NCBI GenBank assembly: GCA_042408925.1
Contig: JBHOQO010000139.1
Span: 3,655 to 67,654, forward strand
DNA length: 64,000 nt
Direction of reading: 5' to 3'
From: Chloroflexota bacterium
Lineage (GTDB): Bacteria; Chloroflexota; Limnocylindria; Limnocylindrales; CSP1-4
The notes under the pieces are model-generated. The model did not search any database and was not told the DNA's origin. It worked only from the letters and a program-made list of their open reading frames with translations. The position numbers and the translations under genes were made by a program. This document shows, piece by piece, positions 6,732 to 60,950 of the stretch; position 1 is the stretch's first letter; the number at the start of each line of letters is the position of its first letter.

Positions 6732-7529
6732 TCACCGATCCGGGCCTCGGGCTGAGCGCTGCTCGTCCGACGCCGGGGTCGTCGGCGTCGTGTCGGCCGA
6801 TGAGGCGGGCGGACTGGCGACGAGTCGATACCCGACGCCACGGACGGTCAGGAGGTGCCGGGGTCGGTCGGGGTCCGGCTCGATCTTCTGGCGGAGCCGT
6901 CGCATCGTGACCCAGACGTAGGACGGGTCGGCATCGTCGGTCTCCGCCCAGCCGCGGGCGATGAGCGTCTCGGTCGGGACGGTCTGGCCGAGGTTCGCGG
7001 CGAGGGCGTAGAGGAGGCGCGACTCGGTCGGGGTGAGGGCGACGACGCGGCCGCGGACCGAGGCGGTCCGGCGGTGGAGGTCGAGGGAGAGGTCGGGCCC
7101 CAGGACGAGGCTCTGGCGGGGCACGCGATCGCCGAGCCGGCGGAGGACGCGGTTGATCCGGGCGCGGAGCTCGGGGTAGTGGAAGGGCTTGGTGACGTAG
7201 TCCTCGGCGACCTCGTCGAGGAGGTCGGCCTTGCTGTCGGCGGCGTCGATGGCCGAGAGGACGATGATCGGGAGGTCGGCGATCGCCTTGATCTCGCGGG
7301 CCAGGGACAGGCCGTCGAGTCGCGGCATCATCATGTCGAGGACGATGAGGTCGGGCCAGCCGGACCGAAGGCGGCGGAGAGCTTCCTGGCCGTCGCGGGC
7401 GGTGGCGACCGCGAAGCCGTCGTCGCGGAGCTGCTCGGCGAGGACGACGAGGAGGTTCGGGTCGTCGTCGACGAGCAGGATGCGCGGGGCGTTTGGGCCG
7501 TACGGTGCACCCGCCCTGCCGGGGAGCAT
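6732..7529 (-). CDS. OmpR-family response regulator (receiver plus winged-helix)
   Basis: Receiver domain: RILLVDDDPNLLVVLAEQLRDDGFAV...DLIVLDMMMPRLDG. Winged helix: VRGVGYRLV. Confidence 0.8.
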   Translation of the reverse strand: MLPGRAGAPYGPNAPRILLVDDDPNLLVVLAEQLRDDGFAVATARDGQEALRRLRSGWPDLIVLDMMMPRLDGLSLAREIKAIADLPIIVLSAIDAADSKADLLDEVAEDYVTKPFHYPELRARINRVLRRLGDRVPRQSLVLGPDLSLDLHRRTASVRGRVVALTPTESRLLYALAANLGQTVPTETLIARGWAETDDADPSYVWVTMRRLRQKIEPDPDRPRHLLTVRGVGYRLVASPPASSADTTPTTPASDEQRSARGPDR

Positions 7530-7599
7530 GGCCCGAGGATAGCAGCGCCCGGGGGCCGATCGGCGCTGCGGGCGCTGGGTGCGGGTCGGGCGGCCGTCA

Positions 7600-7812
7600 A
7601 CGTGACCTCACCTCCGCTCTATGGGTGCGCTCGGTGACGCCGTGGCTGGACACTTCGCCTGGGACGTGCCGTTCGGTGCGCTCGGTGACGCCGTAGCTGG
7701 ACATCTCGGCCAGCTCGGGACGTAGTCGCTCCAAGTGTCCAGCTAGGCCGTCACGGGCGGCGGGGAACGAACCCGGGACCTCCAAGTGTCCAGCTAGGCC
7801 GTCACGGACGGC
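7600..7812. repeat. Intergenic repeat cluster with 4 copies of a roughly 22-bp motif (GTGACGCCGT[A/G]GCTGGACA[C/T]YTCG): 2 direct and 2 inverted, spaced about 50 bp apart
   Basis: Read directly: 'ggtgacgccgtggctggacacttcg', 'ggtgacgccgtagctggacatctcgg', and two copies of 'caagtgtccagctaggccgtcacgg', which is the reverse complement of the same motif. The cluster lies in the promoter region of the two-component-system operon. Confidence 0.7.
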
Positions 7813-7852
7813 GGGGAACGCACACCCCGCGCACCCCCGCGCACCCCCGCCC

Positions 7853-8740
7853 CTACGGCGCTCGCGGGTCGACGAAGCGGCAGCGCGGCGCGACCGGGCA
7901 GGCCCTGCAGTTCGGCCGCCGCGCCTCGCAGATCCGCCGGCCGTGCGTGATCAGGTTGACGTGCGCCTCGTACACCTGGTCGGGCCGCAGCAGTTCCAGG
8001 TAGATGTCGTGGCACTCGTCGGCCGTCGCCGTCGCCGGCACGAGCCCGATCCGCTTCGAGACCCGCTCCACGTGCCGGTCGACCGGCATGAGCGGCATCC
8101 CGAAGCAGAACATGAGGATGACCGAAGCCGTCTTCTTGCCGATCCCGTCGATCGACGTCAGCCAGTCGCGGGCTGCGAGCGGCTCCATCGCCCCGAGAAA
8201 CTCGAGCGAGAAGTCGCCCCGCTCGTCCCGGATCCGGCGCAGCGCGGCGACCAATCGCGGCGCCTTCTGCCGGGCGAGCCCCCCGGGCCGGATCGCCTCC
8301 TCGACCTCCTCGATCGGCGCCTCGGCGATCGCCGCCCAGTCCGGCGCCGGCGCCAGCTCGATCCCGAGCCCGCCCCAGCCGTCGGGCGGCGTCCCGTTCG
8401 CCCGCCGGTCGCCGACGACCGGCCCCGAGCCAGGGAAGCGGGCCCGGAGCGACTCGAAGGCCTGCTCGGCGTTCGTGTCGGCGCTGTTCTGGGCGAGGAT
8501 CGTGAGGACGAGCTCGGACGTCGGATCGAGCCGACGGCGCCAGGTCGGTCGCCCGTAGAGCGTGGCGAGCGCGTCGAGGACGAACGCGACGAGACCGGGC
8601 CGGGTTCGTGCGAGGCGCCGAGCCCAGGTTCGGGCCGGGTTCGCGGGCCGGCGTCGGCGGGTCGGCCGCCGGACCGCACGGGCGGACCGTCTCGGTCGCT
8701 TCGAGCCCTCCGGCGGCGCCGTCTCGACCTCCTCGCTCAC
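7853..8740 (-). CDS. nth: Endonuclease III (HhH-GPD base-excision glycosylase with 4Fe-4S cluster), with a basic N-terminal tail
   Basis: HhH-GPD core: LVLTILAQNSADTNAEQAF...DGIGKKTASVILMFCFGMP. Cluster ligands C-x6-C-x2-C-x5-C: CEARRPNCRACPVAPRC. The proposed GTG start at 8738-8740 overlaps the upstream gene's TGA (GTGA); the rest of the 525-aa track ORF is low-complexity. Confidence 0.7.
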   Translation of the reverse strand: MSEEVETAPPEGSKRPRRSARAVRRPTRRRRPANPARTWARRLARTRPGLVAFVLDALATLYGRPTWRRRLDPTSELVLTILAQNSADTNAEQAFESLRARFPGSGPVVGDRRANGTPPDGWGGLGIELAPAPDWAAIAEAPIEEVEEAIRPGGLARQKAPRLVAALRRIRDERGDFSLEFLGAMEPLAARDWLTSIDGIGKKTASVILMFCFGMPLMPVDRHVERVSKRIGLVPATATADECHDIYLELLRPDQVYEAHVNLITHGRRICEARRPNCRACPVAPRCRFVDPRAP

Positions 8741-9981
8741 GCCCCCGAGTGTAGGGCGACCGAAGCCCCGAGGGAGACGCCGAGGGAGACGAGCCGGGCG
8801 ATCCGTTCGCCGCAGCGCTCGAGCGGCGCCGTCCCCGCCGCCATCGCCTCTGCCACCGAGATCGGCGCCTCGACGACCGGAACGACAACGACCCCGAACT
8901 CGCCGAGATCCCGGATCCCCTCCTCCGTCACCCCGCCCCCGACGGCGACGACGGCCCGCCCGGCCGCCCGAGCCCGTCGGGCGACCCCCATCGCCGTCTT
9001 GCCGAAGGCCGTCTGGGCGTCGATCCGGCCCTCGCCGGTGAGGACGAGGTCGGCCGCCTCGAGCTTCGACTCGAACCCCGTTTCGGCCATGACGAGCTCG
9101 ACGCCGGGCTCGAACCGGAGACTCCCGAAGCGCCCGGCGAGGCAGAGGAGGGCGAAGCCGACCCCGCCGGCCGCCCCCGCCCCCGGCGTCGTCCGTTCCC
9201 GACGGCCGGTCGCCGCCTCGAGCCGATCCGCCCAGCGCGCGAGCATCGCGTCGAGGACCGCGACGTCGCCCGGGGCCGCGCCCTTCTGCGGCCCGTACGT
9301 GGCGGCCGCGCCCGTCGGGCCGAGGAGCGGGTTGCCGACGTCGCAGGCGACCGAGAGCTCCACCTCGGCGAGCCGGGGATCGAGATCCGACAGGTCGACG
9401 GTCTCGAGGGCCTCGACGACCGCCGGCCAACCGCCCCCGCCCGGCAGCCCGTCAGCGGCGAGGAGGTCGCCCGATCGGCCCCGCAGCCGCGCCCCGAGGG
9501 CGACGAGGAGCCCGGCCCCGCCGTCGGTCGTCGCGCTCCCGCCGATCCCGAGGGTGATCCGCCGCGCCCCGCCGTCGAGGGCGGCCCGGAGGAGCTCGCC
9601 CGTCCCCCCCGTCGAGACCCGGAACGGATCGCGCTCGGAGGGCGCGAGCCGCGAGAGGCCCGAGGCCTCGGCGAGCTCGACGACCGCTCCCCGTGCCGCC
9701 CCCGCCGCTGCCTCGAGCCAGCGGGCCTCCACCTCCCGGCCGAGGGGGTCGCGGACCCGTGCCGCCCGCCACGCCCAGCCGCCGGCCGCCTCGATGGCGA
9801 CGAGCGTCCCTTCGCCCCCGTCGGCGAGCGGAGCGAGGAGGACCCGATCCCCCGGCCGGGCCCGCCCCCAGCCGGTCGCCAGGGCCCGAGCGACCTCGAC
9901 GGAGGTGAGCGACCCCTTGAACGAATCCGGCGCGACAAGGACGACGAGGCGAGGCTCGTGTCGAGCGGCCGAGCCCGCCAC
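8737..9981 (-). CDS. glxK: Glycerate kinase (GlxK/GarK family)
   Basis: Strong family motifs: VLVAPDSFKGSL, PLADGGEGT, TLGIGGSATTDGGAGLL, VACDVGNPLLGPTGAAATYGPQKGA, GAGAAGGVGFALL and LVLTGEGRIDAQTAFGK. The GTG start is at about 9979-9981. Confidence 0.8.
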   Translation of the reverse strand: MAGSAARHEPRLVVLVAPDSFKGSLTSVEVARALATGWGRARPGDRVLLAPLADGGEGTLVAIEAAGGWAWRAARVRDPLGREVEARWLEAAAGAARGAVVELAEASGLSRLAPSERDPFRVSTGGTGELLRAALDGGARRITLGIGGSATTDGGAGLLVALGARLRGRSGDLLAADGLPGGGGWPAVVEALETVDLSDLDPRLAEVELSVACDVGNPLLGPTGAAATYGPQKGAAPGDVAVLDAMLARWADRLEAATGRRERTTPGAGAAGGVGFALLCLAGRFGSLRFEPGVELVMAETGFESKLEAADLVLTGEGRIDAQTAFGKTAMGVARRARAAGRAVVAVGGGVTEEGIRDLGEFGVVVVPVVEAPISVAEAMAAGTAPLERCGERIARLVSLGVSLGASVALHSGA

Positions 9982-15383: not shown

Positions 15384-15839
15384 TCAGGGCCGGCGGAGGA
15401 GCCGGCCCAGCCAGCCGCGCCGTCGTCGCGCGGGGGCATCGGCGTCGCGCGGCGCGGGCGGCCGGGCGTCCGGGTGCGCTTCGGGTGCCGCCCGGGTCGC
15501 GGGTGCCACACCGGTCTCGGGTGCCGCCCCGGTCTCGGGTGCCGCCCCGGTCTCGGGTGCCGCCCCGGTTGCCGCCGCCCGGGTCGCTCGAACCTCCTCG
15601 AGGCGGGCGACGAGCCGCTGCGCCGCGACGTTCTCGGGATCGGCCGCCAGGGCCTGCCGTGCCAGCTCGAGCGCTCCCGCTTCGTCACCGCGCTCGAGGG
15701 CGACCCGAGCGAGCCCGACGATGGCGATGGCGTTCCCGGGGTCGGCGGCGAGGACCTGCCGGTACGTCTGCTCGGCCCGATCGAGGAGCCCGGCGACGAG
15801 GGCCCGCTCGGCGTCGAGGAGGAGCTCGATGGTCGTCAC
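15384..15839 (-). CDS. TPR-repeat protein with a C-terminal AAPETG tandem repeat
   Basis: TPR-like helices: YRQVLAADPGNAIAIVGLARVALERGDEAGALELARQALAADPEN. The C-terminal AAPETG x3 is encoded by an 18-bp tandem repeat at about 15485-15560. Confidence 0.45.
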   Translation of the reverse strand: MTTIELLLDAERALVAGLLDRAEQTYRQVLAADPGNAIAIVGLARVALERGDEAGALELARQALAADPENVAAQRLVARLEEVRATRAAATGAAPETGAAPETGAAPETGVAPATRAAPEAHPDARPPAPRDADAPARRRRGWLGRLLRRP

Positions 15840-15845
15840 GATCCG

Positions 15846-17250
15846 CTACGCCTCGTCGGCGGCCAGGGACCGGGCGAGGAGGAGGAGGGTCGGTCGCTCG
15901 TTCAGCGACGGGTCGGCGACGACCCGCTCGAGGAGGGCGTCGAGGATTCGACCGAGGCGCGGCCCCGGCTCCACACCGAGCTCGGCGATGAGGTCGTCGC
16001 CGTCGACGGCGAGGTCGCGTCGGTCGAGGACGACCGGGCCGGCGAGGATCGCCGCGACGCGCGCCTCGAGCTCGGCCACGCCGGTCGCTTCGGGCGGCAG
16101 GCCGCTCCCGACGTTGTCGGCCCGTCGCAAGGCGAAGAGCTCGTCGAGGGCGTCGGGGCCGATCCGGGCGATGAAGCGTCGGACGGCGGCGTCGCTCCAG
16201 CTCCCCTCGTAGGAGAACATGTGGTGACGGACGAGGTGGGCGACCCGCTCGATCGTCTCGCGGGGCAGCCGGAGGCGCCGGAGGATCACCTCGCTCAGCT
16301 CCGCCCCCCGGAGCTCGTGGCCCGGGAAGTGCCCCTCGGCGGCCGTTCCGGGCTTGCCGACGTCGTGGAGGAGGGCAGCGAGCCGGACGATCGGCCGCTC
16401 GGCCGGTGCGGCATCGACGGTCCGGAGCGTGTGGGCCCAGAGGTCGTCGCCGGGAACCTTGGCCTGGGGGACCCCGCGCTGGGCGGCGAGCTCGGGGAGG
16501 AGGCGTTCGAGAAGGCCGGTCGCCTCGAGGAGCCCGAGGCCGATGGACGGCCGGCGGGCGGCGAGGAGCTTCGTCAGCTCGGCCGCGATCCGTTCGCCCG
16601 AAAGGTGGCGGACGAGGTCGGCCCGCTCCCGGATCGCCGCGAGCGTGGCCGGCTCGATCTCGAACTCGAGGACGGCGGCGAGGCGGATCGCCCGGACCAT
16701 CCGGAGGGCGTCCTCCCCGAAGCGGTCGAACGGGTTGCCGACGGCCCGGATCCGGCGGGCGGCGAGGTCGGCGAGGCCGCCGTGGGGGTCGACCAGGCGG
16801 ATCTCGGCGGGCGTGCCGTCGGGGCTCGGCTCGGCGCCCCAGGCGAGGGCGTTGATCGTGAAGTCGCGGCGGGCGAGGTCGTCCTCGATCCGCTCGCCAA
16901 ACTCGACCCGGTGGGGGCGGCGGAAGTCGGCGTACTCGTGCTCGGAGCGGAAGGTCGTGATCTCGTGGACGCCGTCCCGGCGGCGGACGCCGACGGTCCC
17001 GAACTGGTTCTCGTACGACGCGTCGGGGAAGACCGCCAGGACCTCCTCGGGGCGGGCGGCGGTGGCGAGGTCCCAGTCGGCGGCCGGGCGGTCGAGGAGG
17101 ACGTCGCGGAGCGAGCCGCCGACGAGGTAGGCGGCGTGGCCGGCGGCCCAGAGCCGGCGGAGGAGGTCGAGGACGGGTTCGGGGACGGCGGCGGCGATCT
17201 TCGCCCGGGCGGCCTCGGGATCGAGCGGCTCGGCGGGCGTGTTCGGCTCG
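15846..17250 (-). CDS. cca: CCA-adding enzyme / poly(A) polymerase-family tRNA nucleotidyltransferase with a C-terminal HD domain
   Basis: Pol-beta nucleotidyltransferase head GGSLRDVLLDRPAADWDLAT; RDFTINALAW; HD region HLVRHHMF...LRRADNVGSG. The start is approximate; the upstream part of the track ORF runs through a 17-bp tandem repeat and the HNH gene in another frame. Confidence 0.65.
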
Positions 17251-17254
17251 GTCG

Positions 17255-17345
17255 GCCTTCGTCCTGTGGTGGGCCCTCGCCCCGCGGTCGACCCTCGCCC
17301 CGCGGTCGACCCTCGCCGCGCGGTCGACCCTCGCCGCGCGGTCGA
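17255..17345. repeat. 17-bp tandem repeat (CGCGGTCGACCCTCGCC) x4
   Basis: Read directly: 'ccgcggtcgaccctcgccccgcggtcgaccctcgccgcgcggtcgaccctcgccgcgcggtcgac'. Confidence 0.8.
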
Positions 17346-17368
17346 CTCGTCCCGTCCCCGACCGGCGC

Positions 17369-17989: not shown

Positions 17990-18295
17990 AGCCATTCGTC
18001 CGGTGCATGGAATGTCGTGCGGCACCGGCCGCGACGCGCCACCTATTCACCCGGCGCATCTCCGCCCCGGTCGGCGGCCCTCCGCCGCTCCGCGCATTCC
18101 CGAGGCGAATACAAGCCGGCCCGCAACCGGCCGCGACCGACCGTGCATTCTCCCGGCGAATGGGCGACCAGGCCGGCCGCCCATCGGCGCCCGTACATTC
18201 ACCGCCCGCATGATCGACCGGGGTCGGCCGCGTCGCATCACGCCAGCATGCGCCCGATGAATGTCCGACGATCTCCGGACGTCAGTCCCGGGCTC
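17990..18295. repeat. Six-unit tandem array with about 51-bp period; each unit carries an imperfect CATTC-N7-8-GAATG inverted repeat
   Basis: Units begin near 17993 (cattcgtccggtgcatggaatg), 18044 (tattcacccggcgcatc), 18096 (cattcccgaggcgaata), 18146 (cattctcccggcgaatg), 18196 (cattcaccgcccgcatga) and 18247 (catgcgcccgatgaatg). The array lies in the roughly 500-bp gap between the HNH gene's 5' end and the liu operon's 3' end. Confidence 0.7.
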
Positions 18296-19708: not shown

Positions 19709-21850
19709 TCAGGCCTCGATGAGGGCGATGAGGTCGCCCCGGGCGAGCTGGTCGCCGCGCCCCACGGCCAAGTCGACGACCCGGCCCGGCCCCGGAGCGG
19801 CGACGACGTGCTCCATCTTCATCGCCTCGAGGGTGACGATCGGGTCGCCGGCTTCGACGTGGTCCCCGACCGCGACGTGGACGACGCCGACGAGGCCCGG
19901 CATCGGCGCCTCCACGACCTGGGCGCCGCCGGCGTGGCCGCGCTCGGCCGTCCGGACCGCGGCCTCGACGTCGGGCGGTGGGGCGAGCCGGAAGGCGACC
20001 GAGCGGCCCGCAACGTCGACGTGGGCAACGAGTCCGTCGACGGCCGCGGCCGGGAGGGGCTCGCCCGCCACCGAGCGGTCGTCGGCCCCTCCACCCTCCG
20101 GGTCGAGGAGGACCGTTCGAGCGGTCCCGTCCTCGGCGACGAGTCGCAGGGACGCTCCGAACGGTCGCCAGCCGCCGCCCCACGGGTCGCCGCGCCGGGC
20201 TGCCTCGGCCTCGAGCGCGCCCCGCAGGGCCTCGCCGGCCGCCCGCCAGACCGCCTCGGCCTCGCCGGCCCTTCGAACCCGTTCGGCCCAGTCGTCCGGC
20301 GGCCAGATGGCGGCGAGCGTGTCGGTTCGGGCCAGCCCCTCGCGGACGACCGGCTGCCGAACGAGCCACCGGAGGAAGCGGAGGTTCGTGACGAGCCCGA
20401 GGAGGCGGGTCGCCTCGAGGGCCGCCGCCAGCCGATCGAGGGCGGCCTCGCGGTCGGGGCCGTGGGCGGCGATCTTGGCGAGGAGCGGGTCGAACCGTCC
20501 GCCCACGACCGAGCCGACCTCGACGCCCGCGTCGACCCGTATCCCCGGCCCCTCCGGCCAGGCGAGGTCGAGAATGCGACCCGTCGCCGGCAGGAAGCCC
20601 GCCTCGGCGTCCTCGGCGTAGAGGCGGACCTCGACGGCATGGCCGCCGGCCTCGAAGGCCCGAAGGACGTCGCCCTGGTCGAGCCCGAGCGGCTCGCCGG
20701 CGGCGACCCGGAGCTGGTCGGCGACGAGGTCGCGACCCGTGACCGCCTCGGTGACGGGGTGCTCGACCTGGAGGCGGGTGTTCATCTCGAGGAAGACGAA
20801 CCGGTTCGTCTCGTCGAGGAGGAACTCGCACGTTCCGGCTCCGACGTAGCCGACGGCCGACGCAAGCCGGAGGGCCGCCTCGCCGAGGGCCGCCCGCAGC
20901 TCCGGGGTCAGCCGCGGCGCCGGCGCCTCTTCGAGGATCTTCTGGTGGCGCCGCTGGAGCGAGCAGTCGCGCTCGCCCAGGTGGACGCCCCGACCGTGGG
21001 CATCGAAGAGGACCTGAACCTCGACGTGGCGAGGGTGCTCGAGGTAGCGCTCGAGGAGGAGGCGGTCGTCTCCGAAGGCCGCCCGGGCCTCCCGACGGGC
21101 CGCGGCGAGGACCGCTCCGAGACCCTCGAGGCTCCGGACGACCCGCATCCCCTTGCCGCCGCCGCCGGCCGCCGGCTTGACGATGAGCGGAGGGCCGAGT
21201 CGCTCGGCCGCGGCGAGGAGCGAGGCGTCGGATTGGTCGGCGGGGGCGTCGCCCTCGGCGACCGGGATTCCGAGGCGGCGGGCGAGCTCGCGGGCGCGGG
21301 CCTTGTCGCCCATCGCCTCGATCGCCTCGGGCGGCGGGCCGACCCAGCGGATCCCGGCGGCGAGGACGCGGCGGGCGAAGTCGGGATTCTCGGCGAGGAA
21401 GCCGTAGCCGGGGTGGAGGGCGTCGGCGCCGGCGGCGAGGGCGGCAACAACGACCTCCTCGGGGTCGAGGAGGTCGAGAGGTTCGGGCGATGCGGACGCG
21501 GGCAGGGCCGGCCGGCCGTCGTCGACGAGGGGAAGCACGGCTTCGATCCCGAGGCGGTGGCAGGTTCGGGCGATCCGGGCCGCGATCTCGCCCCGGTTCG
21601 CGACGAAGCAGCGGCGGATCGGGCGGGCGGGTGCCGTGGCCGTCGTCTGTGCGGCCCCACGAGCGGTCGATCCCGCAGCGCCGAGCGCGGCGAGGGCGGC
21701 GACGGGCACCCGCCACCGACCGCCGACCCGCCGGGCCGGGAGGCGGCCGGCAGCGATCCAGCGCTGGACGGTTCGGGTGCTCGTCCCCAGGCGGCGCGCC
21801 GCTTCGGACGGCGAGCACTCGAACCGATCGTCAGCCGGTCGCGCGGTCAT
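19709..21850 (-). CDS. Methylcrotonyl-CoA (acyl-CoA) carboxylase alpha subunit: biotin carboxylase plus BCCP, with an N-terminal excisionase/MerR-type HTH extension
   Basis: Biotin-carboxylase motifs: IRRCFVANRGEIAARI, the ATP-grasp fold, and C-terminal BCCP EAMKMEH. The first roughly 45 aa (RRLGTSTRTVQRWIAAGRLPARRVGGRWRVP) match HTH_17/excisionase-type DNA-binding helices. They sit in the same frame as the carboxylase with no intervening stop. Confidence 0.75.
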   Translation of the reverse strand: MTARPADDRFECSPSEAARRLGTSTRTVQRWIAAGRLPARRVGGRWRVPVAALAALGAAGSTARGAAQTTATAPARPIRRCFVANRGEIAARIARTCHRLGIEAVLPLVDDGRPALPASASPEPLDLLDPEEVVVAALAAGADALHPGYGFLAENPDFARRVLAAGIRWVGPPPEAIEAMGDKARARELARRLGIPVAEGDAPADQSDASLLAAAERLGPPLIVKPAAGGGGKGMRVVRSLEGLGAVLAAARREARAAFGDDRLLLERYLEHPRHVEVQVLFDAHGRGVHLGERDCSLQRRHQKILEEAPAPRLTPELRAALGEAALRLASAVGYVGAGTCEFLLDETNRFVFLEMNTRLQVEHPVTEAVTGRDLVADQLRVAAGEPLGLDQGDVLRAFEAGGHAVEVRLYAEDAEAGFLPATGRILDLAWPEGPGIRVDAGVEVGSVVGGRFDPLLAKIAAHGPDREAALDRLAAALEATRLLGLVTNLRFLRWLVRQPVVREGLARTDTLAAIWPPDDWAERVRRAGEAEAVWRAAGEALRGALEAEAARRGDPWGGGWRPFGASLRLVAEDGTARTVLLDPEGGGADDRSVAGEPLPAAAVDGLVAHVDVAGRSVAFRLAPPPDVEAAVRTAERGHAGGAQVVEAPMPGLVGVVHVAVGDHVEAGDPIVTLEAMKMEHVVAAPGPGRVVDLAVGRGDQLARGDLIALIEA

Positions 21851-22027
21851 GATCGCGACCCGGAGCCTGCCGGCGGCCCGATCACGCGCGTCATTCCGGG
21901 CTCCGTCGCTCGCTGCGCCGCCGCCGCCGGCTGGGGCACCAACGCTGGCTGCCGCTCGGTCATGGCTGTCGCGATTGTCGCGTTTGACGCGCCCGCTCGC
22001 AAGCCCGGCCGACGCTTCGAGCGAGGG

Positions 22028-23165: not shown

Positions 23166-23399
23166 ATGCAGGTGAACATCCACGAAGCGAAGACGCACCT
23201 CTCACGGCTCGTCGATCGAGCGGCCGCCGGCGAGGACATCGTGATCGCCAGAGCCGGCCGGCCGGTCGCCCGCCTCGTCCGCTTCGAGCCGCCGCGTGAG
23301 GCCCGACGCCTCGGTATCTGGCGGGGTCAGGTCCGGATCGGCCCCGACTTCGACGCCGTCGATGACGCCCTCGCCGACCTCTTCGAAGGCGAGCGGTGA
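23166..23399 (+). CDS. Type II antitoxin, Phd/YefM family
   Basis: MQVNIHEAKTHLSRLVDRAAAGEDIVIARAGRPVARLV is a canonical Phd/YefM N-terminus. Its stop overlaps the toxin's GTG start (GTGA). Confidence 0.8.
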   Translation: MQVNIHEAKTHLSRLVDRAAAGEDIVIARAGRPVARLVRFEPPREARRLGIWRGQVRIGPDFDAVDDALADLFEGER

Positions 23400-23773
23400 G
23401 GCTCCTCCTCGACACGCACGCGTTTCTCTGGGCACTCGCCCTGCCGGATGAACTGCGACTCGAGGCGAGACGGGCGATCGAGGATCCCCGGAACGACGTC
23501 TTCGTCAGTGCCGCATCTGCCTGGGAGATCGCGATCAAGCGCGCCCTCGGACGCCTGGAGGCGCCCGACGATCTCGGTGATGCCATCGGAGCGGTCGGCT
23601 TCGTCGAGCTGCCGATCACGATCGGGCACGCGCTCGCCGTCGAGCGGCTGGCCCGCCACCATCGCGATCCCTTCGACCGGATGCTCATCGCCCAGGCCCT
23701 CGTCGAGGGCTTGATCATCGTCACCCGCGACGCTCGCTTCGAGCCGTACGGCGTGCCCGTCCTCCGTGCTTGA
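23396..23773 (+). CDS. vapC: Type II toxin VapC (PIN domain ribonuclease)
   Basis: MRLLLDTHAFLWAL..., with acidic residues in PIN positions (D6, E, D near the C-terminus: IVTRDARF). Confidence 0.8.
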   Translation: MRLLLDTHAFLWALALPDELRLEARRAIEDPRNDVFVSAASAWEIAIKRALGRLEAPDDLGDAIGAVGFVELPITIGHALAVERLARHHRDPFDRMLIAQALVEGLIIVTRDARFEPYGVPVLRA

Positions 23774-23821: not shown

Positions 23822-24000
23822 GTGCCCTCGGATGTTCGGCCGCGCTGCGGCGGCCCGCCCGAGTCGTTCGGCTACGGCTGCGCCCGTGGGTATCCCCTGC
23901 GAGTCGCGGCCGCCCGCCGGAGCCGGTCCATGACCGCCCGCCCGAGTCGTTCGGCTATGGCTGCCCCGGTGGGTGCCCCCTCCGAGCGGCGGCCGCCCGC
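23822..24000. repeat. Tandem duplication (about 90 bp x2) that copies the last roughly 24 codons plus stop region of tsaC/sua5
   Basis: Units at about 23822-23911 and about 23912-24000 are nearly identical: 'gcccgagtcgttcggcta[c/t]ggctgc[g/c]cc[c/g]gtgggt[at/gc]cccct[gc/c]gag[t/c][c/g]gcggccgcccgccggagccggtccatgaccgcccgcccgag'. The reverse complement encodes LGRAVMDRLRRAAA(A/T)RRG(H/Y)P. Confidence 0.7.
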
Positions 24001-25007
24001 CGGAGCCGGTCCATGACCGCCCGCCCGAGGCCGACCTCGGGGACGGGCTGGGCGACGATCCGATCGAGCTCGGCCGCGTCGAGGGCGTGGAGGGCGACGA
24101 AGAGGCGAGCTGCCGCCTCGACTGGGTCGCCGGTCGGGCTCAGGACTTCGACGGCGACGAAGGGACCGCCGACGGCCTCGGCGATGCGCCGTCCTTCGGC
24201 GTCGGCGGCGAGGAGGCCGAGTCGCTCGCCGGGCTTCGCCCGCGGCGTCGCGTCGGGCGCGAGCAGGACCAGCGTCGCCCGCGGGGCATAGTGGCCCGCT
24301 GCCCGGCCGGGGGAGAGGGATCGGGCCTCGTGCTCGGGCGGGATCTCGACCGGGCCGACGACCGCTTCGAGTGCCTCGAGGGGCGTGCCGCCCGGCCGGA
24401 GGAGGACGGCCCGGTTGGGGGCGAGGAGGAGGACGGTCGATTCGACGCCGATCCGGCATGGCCCGCCGTCGAGGATGAGGCCGACCCGGCCGTCGAGCTG
24501 GCGGGCGACGTGCTCGGCCCGGGTCGGGCTGACCCGGCCGAAGCGGTTCGCCGAGGGGGCGGCAATCGGGACGCCGGCGGCCCGGATGAGGGCGAGGGCC
24601 ACCGGGTGGTCGGGGATCCGGACCCCGACGGTCTCCAGGCCGGCGGTCACGACGCCCGGCACGACCCTCCGCTTCGGAACGACGAGGGTGAGGGGGCCCG
24701 GCCAGAAGCGCTGGGCGAGGGCTCGAAGGCGGGGGTCGGCGAGGGCTTCGGGCCGGACGACGGTTGCGAGGTCGGCGGGCTCGGCGAGGTGGACGATGAG
24801 GGGATCGAAGGCGGGGCGTTCCTTGATCTCGAAGATCCGGGCTGCGGCGAGCGGGTCGAGGGCGTTCGCCCCGAGACCGTAGACGGTCTCGGTCGGGAAG
24901 GCGACCGGCTCGCCGGCCCGGATCCTGGCGGCCGCCTCGGCGATCGCCGCGGGGTCGTCGCCGGGCAGGATCCGGGGTCGGGTCGAGGCGGGCTCGTCGG
25001 TCGTCAC
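23955..25007 (-). CDS. tsaC: L-threonylcarbamoyladenylate synthase (YrdC domain plus Sua5 C-terminal domain)
   Basis: YrdC motifs VAFPTETVYGLGANAL, IFEIKERPAFDPLIVH and SANRFG; the Sua5 C-terminal domain follows. Confidence 0.8.
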   Translation of the reverse strand: MTTDEPASTRPRILPGDDPAAIAEAAARIRAGEPVAFPTETVYGLGANALDPLAAARIFEIKERPAFDPLIVHLAEPADLATVVRPEALADPRLRALAQRFWPGPLTLVVPKRRVVPGVVTAGLETVGVRIPDHPVALALIRAAGVPIAAPSANRFGRVSPTRAEHVARQLDGRVGLILDGGPCRIGVESTVLLLAPNRAVLLRPGGTPLEALEAVVGPVEIPPEHEARSLSPGRAAGHYAPRATLVLLAPDATPRAKPGERLGLLAADAEGRRIAEAVGGPFVAVEVLSPTGDPVEAAARLFVALHALDAAELDRIVAQPVPEVGLGRAVMDRLRRAAAARRGHPPGQP

Positions 25008-25084
25008 GGCCCGAGTCTACGGTCGGGTCCGGGGTCGGCGGCGGACTCGGCGATCGTCGCCCTCGGACGGCCGAGCTCGCCGCT

Positions 25085-25540
25085 CCATCCCCGTGACGGC
25101 TTCCTGGACATCTGCGGACTCGGCCTTGCGCGGGTGTCGAGCGCGACGGCCTGGCTGGACATCTCACCTCGGTCGGGCCCTTCGGTGCGCGCCATGACGG
25201 CCTGACTTGACATTTGGTGGTGCCGTCTCGCTCGGCTGCTGCGCGTGACGGCCTGGCTGGACATCTCACCTCGGTCGGGCCCTTCGGTGCGCGCCGTGAC
25301 GGCCTGACTTGACATTTGGTGGTGCCTGCGGGCCTACGAGCGTGAACTGTCCAGCTACGGCGTCACGGCCGGCACCGGGCCGGTCCGAATGCGTGAACTG
25401 TCCAGCTACGGCGTCACGGCCGGGCTGCCCGAGCCCCTGAGCTGCGAACTGTCCAGCTACGGCGTCACGGCCGGGCTGCCCGAGCCCCTGAGCTGCGAAC
25501 TGTCCAGCTACGGCGTCACGGCCAGGACCTGACACGACCC
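25085..25540. repeat. Intergenic repeat cluster with about 9 copies of the same roughly 22-bp motif family seen at 7.6 kb (GTGACGGC-TGGCTGGACATCT and inverted GAACTGTCCAGCTACGGCGTCACGGCC), spaced about 51-52 bp apart
   Basis: Direct copies near 25092, 25141, 25194, 25245 and 25297; inverted copies near 25350, 25393, 25445 and 25497. Two larger roughly 105-bp units are duplicated (25137-25240 and 25243-25345). Confidence 0.75.
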
Positions 25541-25552
25541 CACGAACGAGCC

Positions 25553-26893
25553 TCAGCGCCTCGTGCCGCCCTCGCTCGTGCCCGTCAACTGGACCAGGCG
25601 TCGCTCGGCGATCCGAACGAGCCCGGAGGCCACGAGCCGATCGGCCCCAAGGACGCCGGCCCGGGCGAGCCCACCAGACGGTCGCCCACGCCCGAGCCAG
25701 CCGACCGCCGCCACGAGGTCGCAATCGAGCCCGGCCGCCAGCTCGGCGGCTCGGTGGATCAGGGCGGCTGAGATCGCCTCGGTCCCGCCCGGGGCCCCGG
25801 CCCCATCCTCGACCACGGCAAGGTGCCGAACGAGGCCGACCCGCCGCCGGGCGACGACGAGGGCTGCCCCGATCACCTCGCTGCCCGCGAGGGCGAGGAG
25901 GGCGGCGTGGCCGGGCAGATCGGGCAGCGCACGGAAGATCGCGCCGAGCGGGCCGGAGCCGCTCGACCTCCCGGCGAGGAGCGCACCGACGACCGCCGCA
26001 TCGTCGCGATCGGCCTCCCGGACGAGGACACGGCGAGCATCGATCTCGGGCGGGCGCTGAACCCGCTCGGGCTCGACGGCGAAGACCCCGAGCCGCCCGA
26101 CCGAGCGGGTCGCCGGCCGCGGCACGCCCTCCGGCAGCCCCTCCCGAGGGAGCGGCAACCAGCCGACCGAGCCGACCCGCCGGAACGTGCCGACGACCCG
26201 CTCGATGAGATGCGGAACCGTCCGGAGCCCGTCGACCCAGTTGAATGCCGGCCCCAGGAGCCGCGTCGAGGCGCCGATCGCCAGCTCACCGTCGTCGACG
26301 ATCTCGACGGGCCAGCCGAGTCGGGCCGCCGCCCGCCAGCGCTCCCGGTCGGCGAAGCGCTCGGCCGTCTCGATACGATCGAGAAGGAGGTGAACGGGCG
26401 CGTCGCTGTCGGAGCGCGGCGGTAGGACCCGGATCGGATCGCCCGGTCGAACCGGCCCTTCGACGAGGACCCGCGCATAGACCCGAGCGTCGGCGGGGTG
26501 GAGCTCGGCCGAGATCCGGGCGAAGCGACCGTCGGCGAAGGAGCCGGCGATCGTCTTGCAGGGGGTGACCGGCTTGCTCAGCTCCAGGACCAGGCGCTCG
26601 CCGACGGCGAGCCGGGTCCCGGGCGCGAGGAGCCCGAGCTCGATCCCTTCCGTCGTGAGGTTCTCGCCGCAGCTCCCGGGGACGATCGGGTGGCCCTCGG
26701 CGGCGACTCGGCGGATCGCCTCGACGGCGAAGAGGCAGACGGCCCGCAGCGGCCCCCCGTGCTCGGTCGGCTCGGCGTGGCCGTCGCCGACGAGCCCGAG
26801 CCGCCCGACCCAGGCCTCGGCGACGGGCCGTTTCGGCACGCCGCCCGGCGAGACATTGACCTGGAGGACCCGGCCGGTGGGTTCGTCAGCCAT
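25553..26893 (-). CDS. MOSC-domain protein (YiiM-like) with a long C-terminal region of unclear function
   Basis: The N-terminal roughly 160 aa fit MOSC: VLQVNVSPGG...GDGHAEPTEHGGPLRAVCLFAVE...GENLTTEG...LELSKPVTPCKTI. The C-terminal half has no family I can name with confidence. Confidence 0.55.
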   Translation of the reverse strand: MADEPTGRVLQVNVSPGGVPKRPVAEAWVGRLGLVGDGHAEPTEHGGPLRAVCLFAVEAIRRVAAEGHPIVPGSCGENLTTEGIELGLLAPGTRLAVGERLVLELSKPVTPCKTIAGSFADGRFARISAELHPADARVYARVLVEGPVRPGDPIRVLPPRSDSDAPVHLLLDRIETAERFADRERWRAAARLGWPVEIVDDGELAIGASTRLLGPAFNWVDGLRTVPHLIERVVGTFRRVGSVGWLPLPREGLPEGVPRPATRSVGRLGVFAVEPERVQRPPEIDARRVLVREADRDDAAVVGALLAGRSSGSGPLGAIFRALPDLPGHAALLALAGSEVIGAALVVARRRVGLVRHLAVVEDGAGAPGGTEAISAALIHRAAELAAGLDCDLVAAVGWLGRGRPSGGLARAGVLGADRLVASGLVRIAERRLVQLTGTSEGGTRR

Positions 26894-37154: not shown

Positions 37155-38042
37155 ATGAGCGTCGAAACGTCCACCTGGGCCACGAAGAAGGGCCTGGCCC
37201 AGATGCTGAAGGGCGGCGTCATCATGGACGTCGTCACGCCCGAACAGGCCAAGATCGCCGAAGATGCCGGTGCTGTGGCCGTCATGGCCCTCGAGCGGGT
37301 GCCGGCGGACATCCGGGCCGCCGGCGGGGTCGCCCGGATGTCGGACCCGGCCCTCATCGAGCAGATCATGGCCGCCGTTTCGATCCCCGTCATGGCGAAG
37401 TGCCGGATCGGCCATTTCGTCGAGGCCCAGATCCTCGAGGCGATCGGCGTCGACTACATCGACGAATCCGAAGTCCTCACGCCGGCCGACGAGACGAACC
37501 ACATCGACAAGCACGCCTTCAAGGTCCCCTTCGTCTGCGGCTGCCGGAACCTCGGCGAGGCCCTCCGGCGGATCAACGAAGGGGCGGCCATGATCCGGAC
37601 GAAGGGCGAGGCCGGGACCGGGAACGTCGTCGAGGCGGTCCGCCAGCTCCGCACCGTTCTGGCCGAGATCCGGCGCCTCCAGTCGATGCGGGAGGACGAG
37701 CTCTACGTCGCCGCCAAGGAGCTCGACGCCCCGTACCACCTCGTCAGGGAGGTCGCCGAGACCGGCCGGCTGCCGGTCGTCAACTTCGTGGCCGGCGGGA
37801 TCAGCACCCCGGCCGACGCGGCCCTCGTCATGCAGCTCGGCGCCGAAGGCGTCTTCGTTGGCTCGGGGATCTTCAAGAGCGAGGACCCGGCCCGCATGGC
37901 GTCCGCCATTGTCCAAGCGACGACCCACTACGACGACCCGAAGATCCTGGCCGAGGTGAGCAAAGGGCTCGGCGCCCCGATGCGTGGGATCGCCCTCGAG
38001 ACGATCCCCGAGGCGGAGCGCCTCGCCGTTCGGGGTTGGTGA
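37155..38042 (+). CDS. pdxS: Pyridoxal 5'-phosphate synthase, lyase subunit
   Basis: Near-complete match to the PdxS pattern: [66 protein letters not shown] and [11 protein letters not shown]. Confidence 0.9.
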
Positions 38043-38047
38043 CGGGA

Positions 38048-38160
38048 CCGTTGCGCTGCGGACGGGACCACGGAGCTGGTGACGGGACCGTTGCGCTGCG
38101 GACGGGACCACGGAGCTGGTGACGGGACCACGGAGCTGGTGACGGGACGACCGCGCCGAC
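38048..38160. repeat. 40-bp tandem repeat (GGTGACGGGACCGTTGCGCTGCGGACGGGACCACGGAGCT), about 2.6 copies immediately after pdxS
   Basis: Read directly at 38048-38160. Confidence 0.75.
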
Positions 38161-40146: not shown

Positions 40147-42468
40147 GTGAACGGAAACGAGCGGCGCCGCGAGGCGATCGACGATCTCGATGCCCTCCTC
40201 GCGGCCCTCCCGCCCGAGATCGTCGAGGCCGTCCATGCCATTCCGAACCGAGAGGATCTCATCGAGGTCGTCCTCGATCTCGGTCGTCGACCGGAGGCGC
40301 GCTTCCCGGACTCCGAAATCACCCTCCTCGACCGAGAGGTAACGGAGGCGGACATCGCCTACGTCGTCGACCACATCGGCACCTTTGGTGACGACAACCG
40401 AGCCGGGATCGAGCGGACCCTCCACCGGATCAGCGCCATCCGGAACCGGAACGGCAAGATCGTCGGGCTGACCTGCCGCATCGGGCGGGCCGTCTTCGGG
40501 ACCATCGAAATCATCGAGGACCTCGTCGCCTCGGGGCGGTCCATCCTCATCATGGGCCGGCCGGGGATCGGCAAGACGACGATGCTCCGCGAAGCCGCCC
40601 GTGTCCTGGCCGACGACTTCGGGAAGCGGGTCGTTGTCGTCGACACCTCGAACGAGATCGCTGGCGACGGCGACATCCCGCACCCGGCCATCGGCAAGGC
40701 CCGCCGAATGCAGGTTCGAACCCCCTCGCTCCAGCACGAGGTCATGATCGAGGCCGTCGAGAACCATATGCCCCAGGTCATCGTCATCGACGAGATCGGG
40801 ACCGAGCTCGAGGCCCAGGCGGCCCGGACGATCGCCGAACGGGGTGTCCAGCTCATCGGCACCGCCCACGGGAACACCCTCGAGAACCTCATGCTCAACC
40901 CGACCTTGTCGGACCTCATCGGCGGGATCCAGACGGTGACCCTCGGCGACGAAGAGGCGCGCCGTCGCCGAACCCAAAAGAGCGTCCTCGAGCGGAAGGC
41001 GCCGCCGACCTTCGACGTCGTCGTCGAGATCCAGGACCGTGACCGGGTCATCGTCCACACCGACGTCGCCGAGACCGTCGATGCCCTCCTCCGGGGCGAC
41101 CCGATCGCTCCGGAGCTCCGCTGGCGGGACGAGGCTGGCGTCCACCGGACCCAGGCCCGGCTCCGGCCATCACCCCGCGAGTCGGCGGTCGGGGAGCGGT
41201 TCGCCGGACTCGTCGGCAGCGGGCCCTCGTGGCGGACCGAGCCGGGCTGGCGGGGAGCGAGCGTCTATCGGCTCCCGTCGGGGATCGAGCGAGCCGGCGG
41301 GACGGGTCGCGGGGGCGGCTGGCGGCCGGTCCGGGATCGGGAGCTTCGAGCGGTCGGTGGTGAGGGGCCCTTCACCGGCGGCGGCTTCGCCGATCGGGGC
41401 CCGCTCGAGCGGGGCGAAGAGGCGGCCCCCGAGCTGCGAGCCCGCGACCTCCGGGAGCTCGAACGGCAGCGGAGCTGGCGCGAGCAGGCGAGCCGGGCCA
41501 TCGAGGCGCTCCGGGCCGACGAAGGGACGTGGCCCGTGAACGCCGTCGGCGCGGGAGGTCCGGTCGTCGGCACACCGGATCGGGCGGTCGCGCCCGAACG
41601 GGCGGCGGCACCAGAACGGGCGGTCGCGCCCGAACGGGCGGCGGCACCAGAACGGGCGGTCGCGCCCGAACGGGCGGTGGCGCCCGAACGGGCGGCGGCA
41701 CCAGGACCGGGTGCGGCGGAGGGTCTCGAACCCTCGCCGGCAGCTGATGGCGGGTCGGCCGTCGAGCTCGGCGGCCGGCACGGTCGACCAGACGGTCTCG
41801 AGGAGCGGACCGCTGTCGAGGCCCGGGCGGAGTCGCCAGGGGGGACCGGGTTCGGTGCCACACCGGGCGAGGTGACCGCCGTCTCCGAGGAGCTCGAGGA
41901 AGCCCTCGTCGCCGACGACGAGGCCGTTGCCGATCGCGAGCGAGCGGAAGCGATCGCCACCGAGGGGGAGATGCTCCGCGTTCGCGACGGGATCCTGCCG
42001 ACCCTCCGGCTCCTGCCCTACGGGATCAGCCGGAAGCGGCTCGAGCAGGCGATCCGGGAGCTCCAGCTGCCGGTCATCATCGCTCGCGACATCGACGAGG
42101 CCGATGTCGTCATGACCCTCCGGAGCGAATACCGTCAGAAGGCCGGCCTTGTTCGGGAGGCAGAAGAGCGCGGCATCCCGATCTACGTCCTGAAGTCGAA
42201 CACGATCCTCCAGATGCAGTCCTCGCTCACCTCGATCTTCTCCCTCGAGGTCGATCCGCGCGAGGCGGCGCTCCGGGAGGCGGAGGAGGCGATCGGGATC
42301 GTCCTCGAGCGGGCCGAGCCCGTCGAGCTCTCGCCCCAGAACGCCTACATCCGCCGGTTGCAGCACCAGATGGCGGAGCGGGCGAACATCGTCTCGCGCT
42401 CCCGGGGTCGGGAGCCGTACCGGCGGGTTCGTCTCTACCCGGATCCGGCTCGGACGAACTGGCGGTAG
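40147..42468 (+). CDS. R3H-domain / AAA-type P-loop ATPase (Ycf45/SpoIIIAA-like) with an internal tandem-repeat insertion
   Basis: P-loop [15 protein letters not shown]; DxD VIVIDEIG; C-terminal R3H-like domain ([23 protein letters not shown]). An 18-bp tandem repeat (about 41575-41702) encodes [12 protein letters not shown] x7. The GTG start is at about 40147. Confidence 0.6.
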
Positions 42469-49839: not shown

Positions 49840-50260
49840 GTTCACGGAACACCAAAGGGGCCGTATCCCCCGACCGCACCTCCCCCACACCCGCCGTTCG
49901 GTGTTCGTCGCACAGCAAAGCCGCCGAATCGGTCGTTCCCGTCATCTCCTCACCCCCGGTTTGGTGTTCTGAGCGCACGGCCCCCAGACGGGGAGCGGGC
50001 GTGGCCCCGGGCGGGGTCCGGGGGCTGCCCCTGGGCGGAGCGGTGAGCGCACGGTCCCCGGGCGGAGGGGGGGTGGTCGCCCGCGTCGTCGAGCGGCGGG
50101 TCACCGAGCGCACGGCCCCCAGACGGGGAGCGGGCGTGGCCCCACGCGGGGAGCGGGCGTGGCCCCGGACGGGGAGCGGGCGTGGCCCCCCAGGCGGAGT
50201 GGGCTCGGGGCCGCCCCGGCAGGCGTCCTTCGGAGCGGCCGCCCTTCGAGGGGGCGGAAC
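49840..50260. repeat. Repeat-rich divergent intergenic region: GTGTTC-N3-GAACAC palindrome and relatives, plus tandem GGGGAGCGGGCGTGGCCCC units
   Basis: Read directly: 'gtgttcacggaacac' (about 49838), 'ggtgttcgtcgcacag', 'ggtgttctgagcgcacgg'; 'gagcgcacggcccccagacggggagcgggcgtggcccc' x2; 'ggggagcgggcgtggcccc' x4. Confidence 0.65.
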
Positions 50261-60500: not shown

Positions 60501-60950
60501 CAGGACGCCATCATCTACCTCCAGCCGATCTACCTCCAGTCCACGGGGAGCGCCTTCCCGGAGTTCCGGAAGATCGTCGTCGCCTCGCCGACCAGGGTCG
60601 TCTGGGGTGACAGCCTGGCCGAGGCGCTCCGCCTCCTCATCGCCCCCGGGCCGAGCCCGTCCCCGGGCCAGACGCCGTCTCCGGGTCCGACGCCGTCTCC
60701 GGGTCCGACGCCGTCTCCGGGTCCGACGCCGTCCCCGGGTCCGACGCCGTCCCCGGGCCCCTCGGTCGGGCCCGAGCCGTCGCTACCGAGCGACGTGGCG
60801 GGCCTCGTGGAGTACGCGAATCGCCACTTCCAGCTCGCCCAGGAGGCCCTCCGGAGCGGCGACTTCGCCCGCTACGGCGAAGAGATCCGGCTCGTCGAGG
60901 AGGCCCTCCGTCGCCTCGATGCCCTCGTTCGCCTTTCCCCGGCGCCGTAA
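57597..60950 (+). CDS. UPF0182-family large membrane protein (COG1615), with a C-terminal (PSPGPT)n repeat
   Basis: N-terminal multi-TM region, then a large conserved extracytoplasmic domain typical of UPF0182. An 18-bp tandem repeat at about 60655-60770 encodes PSPGQTPSPGPTPSPGPTPSPGPTPSPGPTPSPGP. Confidence 0.8.
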   Translation: MRDLFDEFLEELRREAERRRREAGRRREAERRREATEGGGSAAEAHPSDDLDEAPAPTEEAEGTTRNRGETRGQEGSEGREETPGDREEPLVIRVGGGSGRGRPPRRRSPGGPNDGAPTGGEILRGFLRRLGFVAVFGGALLVVALFAFGLDLWTDAIWFESVGYAAVFWTRLSAQGTLFLAVLVTATLVILGNLWLAGRLTPPPGVGRSAVAAFLERLTEVARAAERDPFSGGGWYRGRPVGPRPVDAGFEPPNLVPVAIVTLAAVGLLLAFGLAGSAGARWELVLLWLNRVPFSPAGEGAVVDPIFGRDIGFFLFDLPFFRLVQSIANGIVLGSVVVALGRYLAASLQGAVPFTTPMRVHLGVLGALYLLSVAVGYQLDKYELVYSTQGVATGVSYTDEAARFVALDTLTVIAALAAAFLVGGAFTRFIWPLGGALVVWFGASIVLGTIYPEVVQRFIVVPNELAREERYIANNIAMTRLAYGLDTWEQRRYQGEGSLDEAKVAAEQATFRNARLWDYRPLRITLDQLQTIRRYYEFVDVDTDRYRIDGELRQVMLSARELAKERNPQATSWVNLKITYTHGVGVAMVPVNEVTPEGQPRLLIRDMPPVSSSGAPRLDEFRIYFGERPSDYVIVGAVQSEFDYPAGTEDGSADLGTRTRWRGTTGIRLDTTFARLLFALRFRDLNLLISDQITAESQLLFHRSLGDRLPRIAPFLRYDKDPYVVVHDGRLVWIQDAFTVSSRFPHAEPFDPTTLGPETGLGSASFNYIRNSVKVVVDAYDGTTTFYVADPNDPLIRAYERIFPTLFRPIAEMPADLRAHVRYPEELFNVQTRVFALYHVTSPAAFYNREDLWTVPAEAPSPGQQNLPMEAYYVVMRMPGEPEPEFLLLQPMVPVNRPNMIAWVAARNDGEAYGQVRYYQFPEETTVFGPTQIAARIDQDPVISAQITLWSQAGSEVIRGNLIVVPVQDAIIYLQPIYLQSTGSAFPEFRKIVVASPTRVVWGDSLAEALRLLIAPGPSPSPGQTPSPGPTPSPGPTPSPGPTPSPGPTPSPGPSVGPEPSLPSDVAGLVEYANRHFQLAQEALRSGDFARYGEEIRLVEEALRRLDALVRLSPAP

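Follow-up and report, generated by a model that had tools for sequence, protein, structure and literature searches.

Two-armed intergenic arrays with a 51-bp period: a candidate lineage-specific family of dispersed repeats in Candidatus Limnocylindrales

A 64-kb stretch of chromosomal DNA (73% GC) from a Chloroflexota bacterium (assembly GCA_042408925.1, contig JBHOQO010000139.1, positions 3,655 to 67,654; hereafter the window, at its full length) contained two intergenic arrays of a short asymmetric motif, repeated every 51 bp in two opposed arms. With a probability of roughly 0.6, these arrays are members of a family of dispersed, non-coding repeats specific to the Candidatus Limnocylindrales lineage, a minisatellite of foldback-like build with a core that is probably recognised by a protein. 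The family is previously undescribed and was assigned to the dispersed bacterial intergenic repeat elements. Its fixed architecture, its presence or absence at orthologous sites, the sharing of units between loci, growth by tandem duplication and the occurrence of several motif subfamilies were all observed. The window was placed in Ca. Limnocylindrales because the homologues of its Sua5 and response regulator proteins bore the labels Chloroflexota or Candidatus Limnocylindrales.

Two intergenic arrays in the window

At up to three mismatches, the motif GTGACGSCNTRGCTGGACA occurred at 12 sites in the window, compared with 0.13 ± 0.37 expected from shuffled sequence, and none of 100 shuffles gave as many. 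A decayed 13th copy carrying a 1-nt deletion was located at 25094–25111. All copies were confined to two intergenic arrays (25094–25519 and 7634–7805). Array 1 comprised five forward copies (four plus the decayed one) followed by four reverse copies, and these nine copies and their spacing matched the description in the first-pass annotation of this DNA. The second cluster of four copies in both orientations that it had reported was also recovered, as array 2 (two forward, then two reverse), upstream of a response regulator/histidine kinase operon. In both arrays, all forward copies preceded all reverse copies without intermixing, and the start-to-start distance of 51 bp ran unbroken across the orientation flip; the exceptions, both in array 1, were 52 bp at the forward/reverse junction and 49 bp beside the decayed copy. 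Independently of the motif search, Tandem Repeats Finder returned periods of 51 and 102 bp. A self-comparison of the window (distances of 30–124 bp, 15 of 17 matches) likewise ranked 51 bp first, with nine clusters, seven of which lay within the two arrays. The units, typed as alpha or beta by their central hexamer as described below, were as follows.

25085–25545: array 1, whole; five forward beta-type units (GGCCTG[GA]), then four reverse alpha-type units (GCCGTAG), 51-bp period
25094–25111, plus strand: outermost forward copy of array 1, decayed GTGACGGCTTCCTGGACA with a 1-nt deletion; retained in the relative L110
25143–25161, plus strand: forward copy of array 1, GCGACGGCCTGGCTGGACA
25194–25212, plus strand: forward copy of array 1, ATGACGGCCTGACTTGACA
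25245–25263, plus strand: forward copy of array 1, GTGACGGCCTGGCTGGACA; together with the next unit, a 102-bp duplicate of the two units before
25296–25314, plus strand: innermost forward copy of array 1, GTGACGGCCTGACTTGACA
25348–25366, minus strand: innermost reverse copy of array 1, GTGACGCCGTAGCTGGACA
25399–25417, minus strand: reverse copy of array 1, exact
25450–25468, minus strand: reverse copy of array 1, exact; 51-bp unit the same as the preceding unit
25501–25519, minus strand: outermost reverse copy of array 1, exact
7621–7821: array 2, whole; two forward alpha-type units (GCCGT[GA]G), then two reverse beta-type units (GGCCTAG), approximately 4 × 51 bp
7634–7652, plus strand: forward copy of array 2, GTGACGCCGTGGCTGGACA; spacer shares 23 of 32 positions with the spacer of unit 25143
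7685–7703, plus strand: forward copy of array 2, GTGACGCCGTAGCTGGACA
7736–7754, minus strand: reverse copy of array 2, GTGACGGCCTAGCTGGACA
7787–7805, minus strand: reverse copy of array 2, GTGACGGCCTAGCTGGACA

Unit anatomy and two-armed architecture

An in-register alignment of 45 units from four genomic sources revealed a fully conserved core of 19 bp, with conservation extending to approximately 27 bp (cGTGACGSCSTRGCTKGACAnyTCRCGC, positions −1 to +26). In this asymmetric, non-palindromic core, the boxes GTGACG and CTKGACA-nyTCRCG flank a variable hexamer and are followed by a short tail, and the remaining ca. 24 bp of the unit is nearly free sequence. Most core positions had an information content of 1.2–2 bits, and most spacer positions one below 0.7 bits. 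Approximately 36 of 42 unit intervals were exactly 51 bp, with almost no indels, although most adjacent spacers were unrelated in sequence. The spacers were not wholly random, as in-register identity between arrays slightly exceeded that of shifted controls. Within one genome, spacers were shared between arrays at 26 of 32 positions (the two arrays of contig L014) and at 23 of 32 positions (window units 7634 and 25143), indicating that whole units have moved between loci. Identical neighbouring units represented recent tandem duplications of 51 and 102 bp.

The two-armed layout was constant. All eight complete arrays (window arrays 1 and 2, L014b, L089, L097, L108, L109 and L112) were convergent, with forward units followed by reverse units, and in every one of them the central hexamer differed between the two arms. 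The centres were CCGTAG or GCGTAG in alpha arms and GCCTGG, GCCTGA, GCGTGG or GCCTAG in beta arms. The order of the alpha and beta arms was opposite in window arrays 1 and 2, although minus-strand genes flank both. Each arm contained 2 to 11 units; the smallest array was 2 + 2, and no single or double copies were seen.

A coding repeat (51 bp being 17 codons) was rejected, as array 1 contains stop codons in all six frames and no frame showed an excess of GC at third codon positions. A hairpin or stem in each unit was rejected as well; RNAalifold gave no consensus structure on either strand, and the folding z-scores of spacer and flank had a mean of 0.0. No sigma-70-like promoter, including a TTGACA variant of the core, and no intrinsic terminator pattern was found in the arrays.

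Distribution in relatives

Arrays of the window motif with exact copies and a 51-bp period were found in at least two further Chloroflexota metagenome-assembled genomes (MAGs), A0_42 and KatS3mg065. The scan of genome contigs for single motif copies returned many chance matches, and the arrays reported here are those among the matches listed. In A0_42, contig L014 carried two arrays, one of them at the contig end, and L097 carried one of 5 + 5 units; in KatS3mg065, L089 carried 6 + 4 units. The genes next to these arrays were unrelated to one another (Ku, a glycosyltransferase, a sugar transferase, LytR and an XRE-family helix-turn-helix (HTH) protein). All arrays were intergenic, and they occupied unrelated loci in at least three genomes. 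Five contigs (L014, L110, L111, L116 and L117) ended inside an array, as expected of multi-copy repeats.

Two sister subfamilies shared the 51-bp period and the two arms. One had the form GTGACG-N6-GCGAACAGAAC (L108, 4 + 4 units; L112, 3 + 2 units) and the other GCGTCG-N6-GCGAACAGAAC (L109, 3 + 2 units; L111; L117). MAG A0_42 held the window subfamily together with a sister subfamily. No such array was present in a control of 752 kb of unrelated genomes. A scan for two-copy patterns found nothing in IMG/VR, and its sole match in JGI metagenome contigs (L105) was a 13-bp simple tandem repeat and was discarded as a chance match. The family was thus restricted to one clade, within uncultured high-GC Chloroflexota.

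These observations support the suggestion of the first-pass annotation that the motif represents a novel repeated extragenic family; the same arrays stood at unrelated sites in A0_42 and KatS3mg065, they were variably present at orthologous junctions (see below), and they had no match among Rfam families, plasmids, phages or viral contigs. Restriction of the motif to two loci, which that annotation had named as a point against such a family, was found inside the window but not across genomes.

Two other repeats were noted. At the Omnitrophota locus L075, the motif recurred every ca. 150–160 bp in a single orientation and had more the look of a coding repeat. In A0_42, a GC-rich tandem repeat with a different unit (...CAGGCGCTGGGCC...CAGACGCGCAGCC...) directly followed the GTGACG-N6-GCGAACAGAAC array (L108, 4230–4420).

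Filled and empty orthologous junctions

Array 1 lies between the stop codon of a MOSC-domain gene and the start codon of a Sua5/TsaC-family gene, and array 2 between the stop codon of an HhH-GPD glycosylase gene and the start of an operon of an OmpR-type response regulator and a histidine kinase. The flanking features were as follows.

23955–25007, minus strand: Sua5/TsaC-family gene, downstream of array 1 (context)
25553–26893, minus strand: MOSC-domain gene, flanking array 1 on its upstream side (context); where relatives have no array, the gene overlaps Sua5 or stops within 32 bp of it
6732–7529, minus strand: OmpR-type response regulator gene, downstream of array 2 (context)
7853–9430, minus strand: HhH-GPD glycosylase gene, its stop codon adjoining array 2 (context)
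25014–25019, minus strand: TAGACT, separated by 6 nt from the GTG start codon of Sua5; may be the −10 box of a promoter of the leaderless type
7536–7541: TATCCT, 6 nt before the response regulator ATG

At the MOSC–Sua5 junction, an array was present in the window and in three relatives. One of these (L110, Sua5 94% identical to that of the window) had the same motif on a contig that ended within the array, and the other two (L109 and L111) had a sister motif. The array was absent from L106/107, L108, L112/113, L114 and L115, where the two genes overlapped or stood no more than 32 bp apart; the corresponding distance in the window, array included, was 545 bp. The junction was empty in L108, which belongs to MAG A0_42, although this MAG bears arrays elsewhere. 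The Sua5 tree of the ca. 83%–87% relatives was star-like, and gains and losses could not be ordered from it. At the glycosylase–response regulator junction, arrays were present in the window, in L116 (response regulator identical to that of the window; contig ending in the array) and in L117 (93% identical; sister motif), and absent from L118, which had a gap of 64 bp. As arrays were present in some relatives and absent from others at both junctions, they are not conserved regulatory DNA of these genes.

The sequences before the two start codons were compared in the same loci. The sequence TAGACT-N6-GTG before Sua5 was seen only in the four array-bearing loci, which is suggestive of a MOSC–Sua5 operon that the array interrupts, the downstream gene then using a promoter of its own. 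Before the response regulator, array-free L118 had TATACT-N6-ATG where the window had TATCCT-N6-ATG, and this box looks like a native −10 box of the leaderless type. In the window, the two boxes also had a 'cgggcc' linker in common, in a layout like that of a leaderless-mRNA promoter. Next to the glycosylase stop codon, array 2 directly adjoins a short 10-bp tandem repeat (CGCACCCCCG, ca. three copies, 7819–7850).

Comparison with known repeat systems

Repetitive extragenic palindromic (REP) sequences and the clusters built from them, bacterial interspersed mosaic elements (BIMEs) and REP doublets forming hairpins (REPINs), are known from enterobacteria and Pseudomonas (Bertels and Rainey 2011, PMC3116915; Di Nocera et al. 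2013, PMC3733652). The present arrays resemble them in their short length and high GC content, in their dispersed extragenic placement, frequently on the 3′ side of genes within operons, in having inverted 'head-to-head' partners that are usually of two subtypes (heterodimers), in amplifying into ordered clusters and in comprising several sequence subfamilies per genome. However, the unit of the window family is neither a palindrome nor a stem-loop, and the stem-loop is the defining feature of REPs. In REPs, one end of the stem also bears a GTAG or CGTC tag that stays unpaired (PMC3733652). In the arrays, GTAG was confined to alpha-type cores, CGTC appeared solely as the complement of box A, and no stem was flanked by either. 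Unlike in BIMEs, orientation did not alternate but formed a forward block followed by a reverse block. The minimum of 2 + 2 units, with no single or double copies seen, is likewise unlike REPs, and no gene for a REP-associated tyrosine transposase (RAYT), repeat-flanked or other, was present in the 64-kb window.

Mycobacterial interspersed repetitive units (MIRUs; Supply et al. 1997, summarised in PMC3184786) are tandem units of 40–100 bp between operon genes of a high-GC bacterium, with filled and empty orthologous sites and variable copy number; the arrays are alike in their 51-bp tandem units within operons, their filled and empty orthologous sites and their behaviour as variable-number tandem repeats (VNTRs). 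In 1997, Supply et al. reportedly portrayed MIRUs as direct repeats of one orientation containing small open reading frames (ORFs) that overlap the flanking genes. The arrays, by contrast, have arms in opposite orientations and are interrupted by stop codons in every frame, and they belong to another phylum.

The closest architectural match was with foldback-type transposons, whose terminal inverted repeats are internally repetitive, such as FB of Drosophila and Galileo (PMC3573991). Both consist of two long inverted arms, built from tandem subrepeats and separated by hardly any sequence or by none. Furthermore, variation in arm length by unequal exchange and presence/absence polymorphism are traits shared with these elements and with miniature inverted-repeat transposable elements (MITEs), and the mutually inverted arms that characterise MITE and foldback termini were found in eight of eight arrays. 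In contrast to the arrays, in which no counterpart was demonstrated, foldback elements are eukaryotic and possess defined termini, target-site duplications and known transposases.

The ends of Mu, Tn7 and Tn402 and the iteron or centromere arrays of plasmids consist of several asymmetric sites of ca. 19–22 bp, arranged as direct repeats in two mutually inverted sets. By analogy, the asymmetric sites of the present arrays, in two opposed sets, could imply cooperative binding of one protein, a likeness that we take as a lead only. Unlike multi-site transposon ends, the arrays had no cargo or transposase between or near the arms; unlike iterons, they were spaced 51 bp centre to centre rather than ca. 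22 bp and showed no similarity to plasmid or phage records. Spacing compatible with cooperative binding on one face of the helix, as expected of an operator array of a single transcription factor, was found in approximately 36 of 42 intervals (51 bp, ca. 5 helical turns).

Rfam yielded no family at gathering or permissive thresholds. An origin in a known mobile element, plasmid or phage was rejected, as searches of plasmid and phage records and IMG/VR gave no similarity to the arrays. Likenesses to DnaA boxes, PhoB/MtrA-type direct repeats, Xer/dif-like sites and IS5-like terminal repeats amounted to a few bases and were dropped.

Favoured explanation and alternatives

The following mechanism could account for the lineage-specific, foldback-like repeat family proposed above. 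Arrays insert or arise in intergenic DNA, including former operons, and lengthen and shorten by tandem duplication of 51 and 102 bp, as is evident in the arrays. Units are copied between loci of one genome, as their common spacers show. Because the core is kept across species whose neutral DNA is saturated, and the spacer is randomised at fixed length, the core is probably the site of a DNA-binding protein. This putative protein would most likely be the enzyme by which the element itself is mobilised or recombined, with its gene at another place in the genome, and such an element-specific enzyme appears more likely than a host regulator. Its binding to successive units would be in phase, given that 51 bp corresponds to ca. 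5 helical turns, and the motif subfamilies would track shifts in its specificity. Effects on neighbouring genes, such as the splitting of MOSC–Sua5 into two transcription units, would be by-products.

Several observations weigh against this explanation. Binding of a protein to the core is inferred from sequence, and the Pfam survey of the ca. 45 window ORFs revealed no transposase, RAYT, recombinase or other candidate partner. No direct repeat that could represent a target-site duplication was seen by eye flanking either window array, and the boundaries of empty sites were not cleanly definable, as these sites were too diverged for base-by-base alignment. The 64-kb window contained only two arrays, and a 20.7-kb stretch of the relative L118 contained none. 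The outermost motif copies of arrays tended toward more decay, and between the window and its 94% relative L110, the two outer copies had changed no more slowly than their flanks. Concerted evolution inside arrays could also account for part of the motif conservation.

A more far-reaching reading, which we consider tentative and on present grounds doubtful, is that the arrays are the cis-acting half of an undescribed system. A sequence-specific protein, transposase/recombinase-like or architectural, would polymerise on the asymmetric sites phased at 51 bp in the opposed hetero-arms, either mobilising the arrays, which would then be a bacterial 'foldback minisatellite transposon', or using them as chromosome-organising or insulating landmarks. 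Such a system would have a paralogue for each motif subfamily, with motif and protein co-evolving between sister lineages.

The best surviving alternative, although an unlikely one, is that the arrays serve the host rather than themselves, as platforms on which a nucleoid protein or transcription factor oligomerises at phased sites and thereby insulates or tunes leaderless promoters. The maintenance of 51-bp spacing without indels despite randomised spacers, continuing through the orientation flip, and the identity of the core across species are both consistent with such a platform. Moreover, both window arrays lie 87–105 bp upstream of start codons preceded by TAnnnT-N6, and the window and L106 share, at an orthologous position, a looser array of palindromic sites (ca. 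51-bp spacing), which hints that phased arrays may be a habit of this clade. However, orthologous genes of close relatives lack arrays entirely, the adjoining genes are functionally unrelated, arms differ in their number of units (2 to 11), arrays stand at varying distances from the start codon (ca. 63 to 161 bp) and the alpha/beta polarity is reversed between the two window arrays with minus-strand genes flanking both. The same evidence does not support the alternative raised by the first-pass annotation, in which the motif would be the regulon signature of a single regulator, and the arrays do not behave like sites of a tsaC regulator; the neighbours (Sua5, response regulator, Ku, glycosyltransferase, LytR and XRE-family HTH protein) are unrelated genes, and array-free Sua5 and response regulator orthologues occur in close relatives.

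Action at the RNA level appears very unlikely. Under this alternative, read-through from the upstream gene would allow the arms to pair as a long imperfect hairpin, affecting mRNA termination, stabilisation or processing as in REP/BIME elements. All arrays with clear flanks lay downstream of a co-directional gene, the −10-like box of Sua5 was found only where the array was present, and whole-array folds were 2.2 and 3.0 standard deviations more stable than shuffles, an excess that inverted motifs must produce in any case. On the other hand, single units had a mean z-score of 0 and no consensus structure, the arm centres were always mismatched, the 32-nt spacers were not complementary, and neither a terminator-like T-run nor an Rfam match was found in the arrays. 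Of the long RNA stem-loops envisaged at the outset, only the excess stability of whole arrays therefore stands, and it is weak at best given that the arm hexamers differ and single units form no hairpin.

A CRISPR-like array is effectively refuted; a conserved repeat of 19–27 bp does alternate with a variable segment of constant length (24–32 bp), but each array has both orientations, the spacers are duplicated and weakly homologous to one another, two spacers tested had no exact match in IMG/VR, no cas gene occurs among the ca. 45 window ORFs, the arrays are many, small and set between housekeeping genes, and no CRISPR repeat family of Rfam matches.

Limnocylindria are abundant, uncultured Chloroflexota of soil and freshwater, and to our knowledge almost nothing has been reported of their genome biology. 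A repeat that splits operons, breaks short-read assemblies and varies in unit number is of direct use for MAG assembly and quality control and for VNTR-based strain typing. The combination of a non-palindromic core, fixed 51-bp phasing and two opposed arms that are always unlike fits neither REP/BIME, MIRU, MITE nor CRISPR. If a partner protein exists, the arrays would provide a ready DNA target for finding a new mechanism of mobilisation or DNA organisation.

Other features of the window

In the Pfam survey, the window ORFs were ordinary housekeeping genes. Near-palindromic sites of ca. 19 bp (yATTCrYC...GrGAATr, e.g., GTATTCGCCTCGGGAATGC), ca. 50–60 bp apart, occurred at 18045–18270 in the HMGL–HNH intergenic region of the window and at 15540–15760 and 20350–20770 in L106. 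The cluster occupies an orthologous intergenic position in the window and L106, and could be distantly related to the 51-bp family or simply represent an operator array of the usual kind.

The interval between the Sua5 and enoyl-CoA hydratase genes seems to be a hotspot for small insertions. In the window, it contains a PIN-domain toxin gene (23366–23773, plus strand); PIN/PhdYeFM pairs were present at the same variable spot in L112 and L114, and none in L106. An 83-bp tandem duplication (23853–24029, 2.1 copies, 91% identical) spans the Sua5 3′ terminus and the spacer that follows it.

Further short repeats had no evident tie to the 51-bp family, namely a 20/40-bp unit repeated ca. 5.6 times upstream of an SNO/PdxT-like gene (38037–38148) and a 23-bp unit repeated ca. 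3.8 times upstream of a c-di-AMP receptor-like gene (50117–50204). Tandem repeats of 18/36 bp lay inside long ORFs at 15482–15569, 41581–41695 and 60644–60757 (epimerase-like, AAA/R3H protein and UPF0182, respectively); these are probably coding low-complexity linkers unrelated to the arrays. Another 18/36-bp repeat lay just outside the HNH ORF (17249–17346). Finally, the stop-to-stop frame of a biotin carboxylase/biotin-carrier gene (19709–22027, minus strand) appeared to include an N-terminal MerR/HTH_17-like segment at residues ca. 70–115, which could be an artefact of upstream extension or a real fusion.

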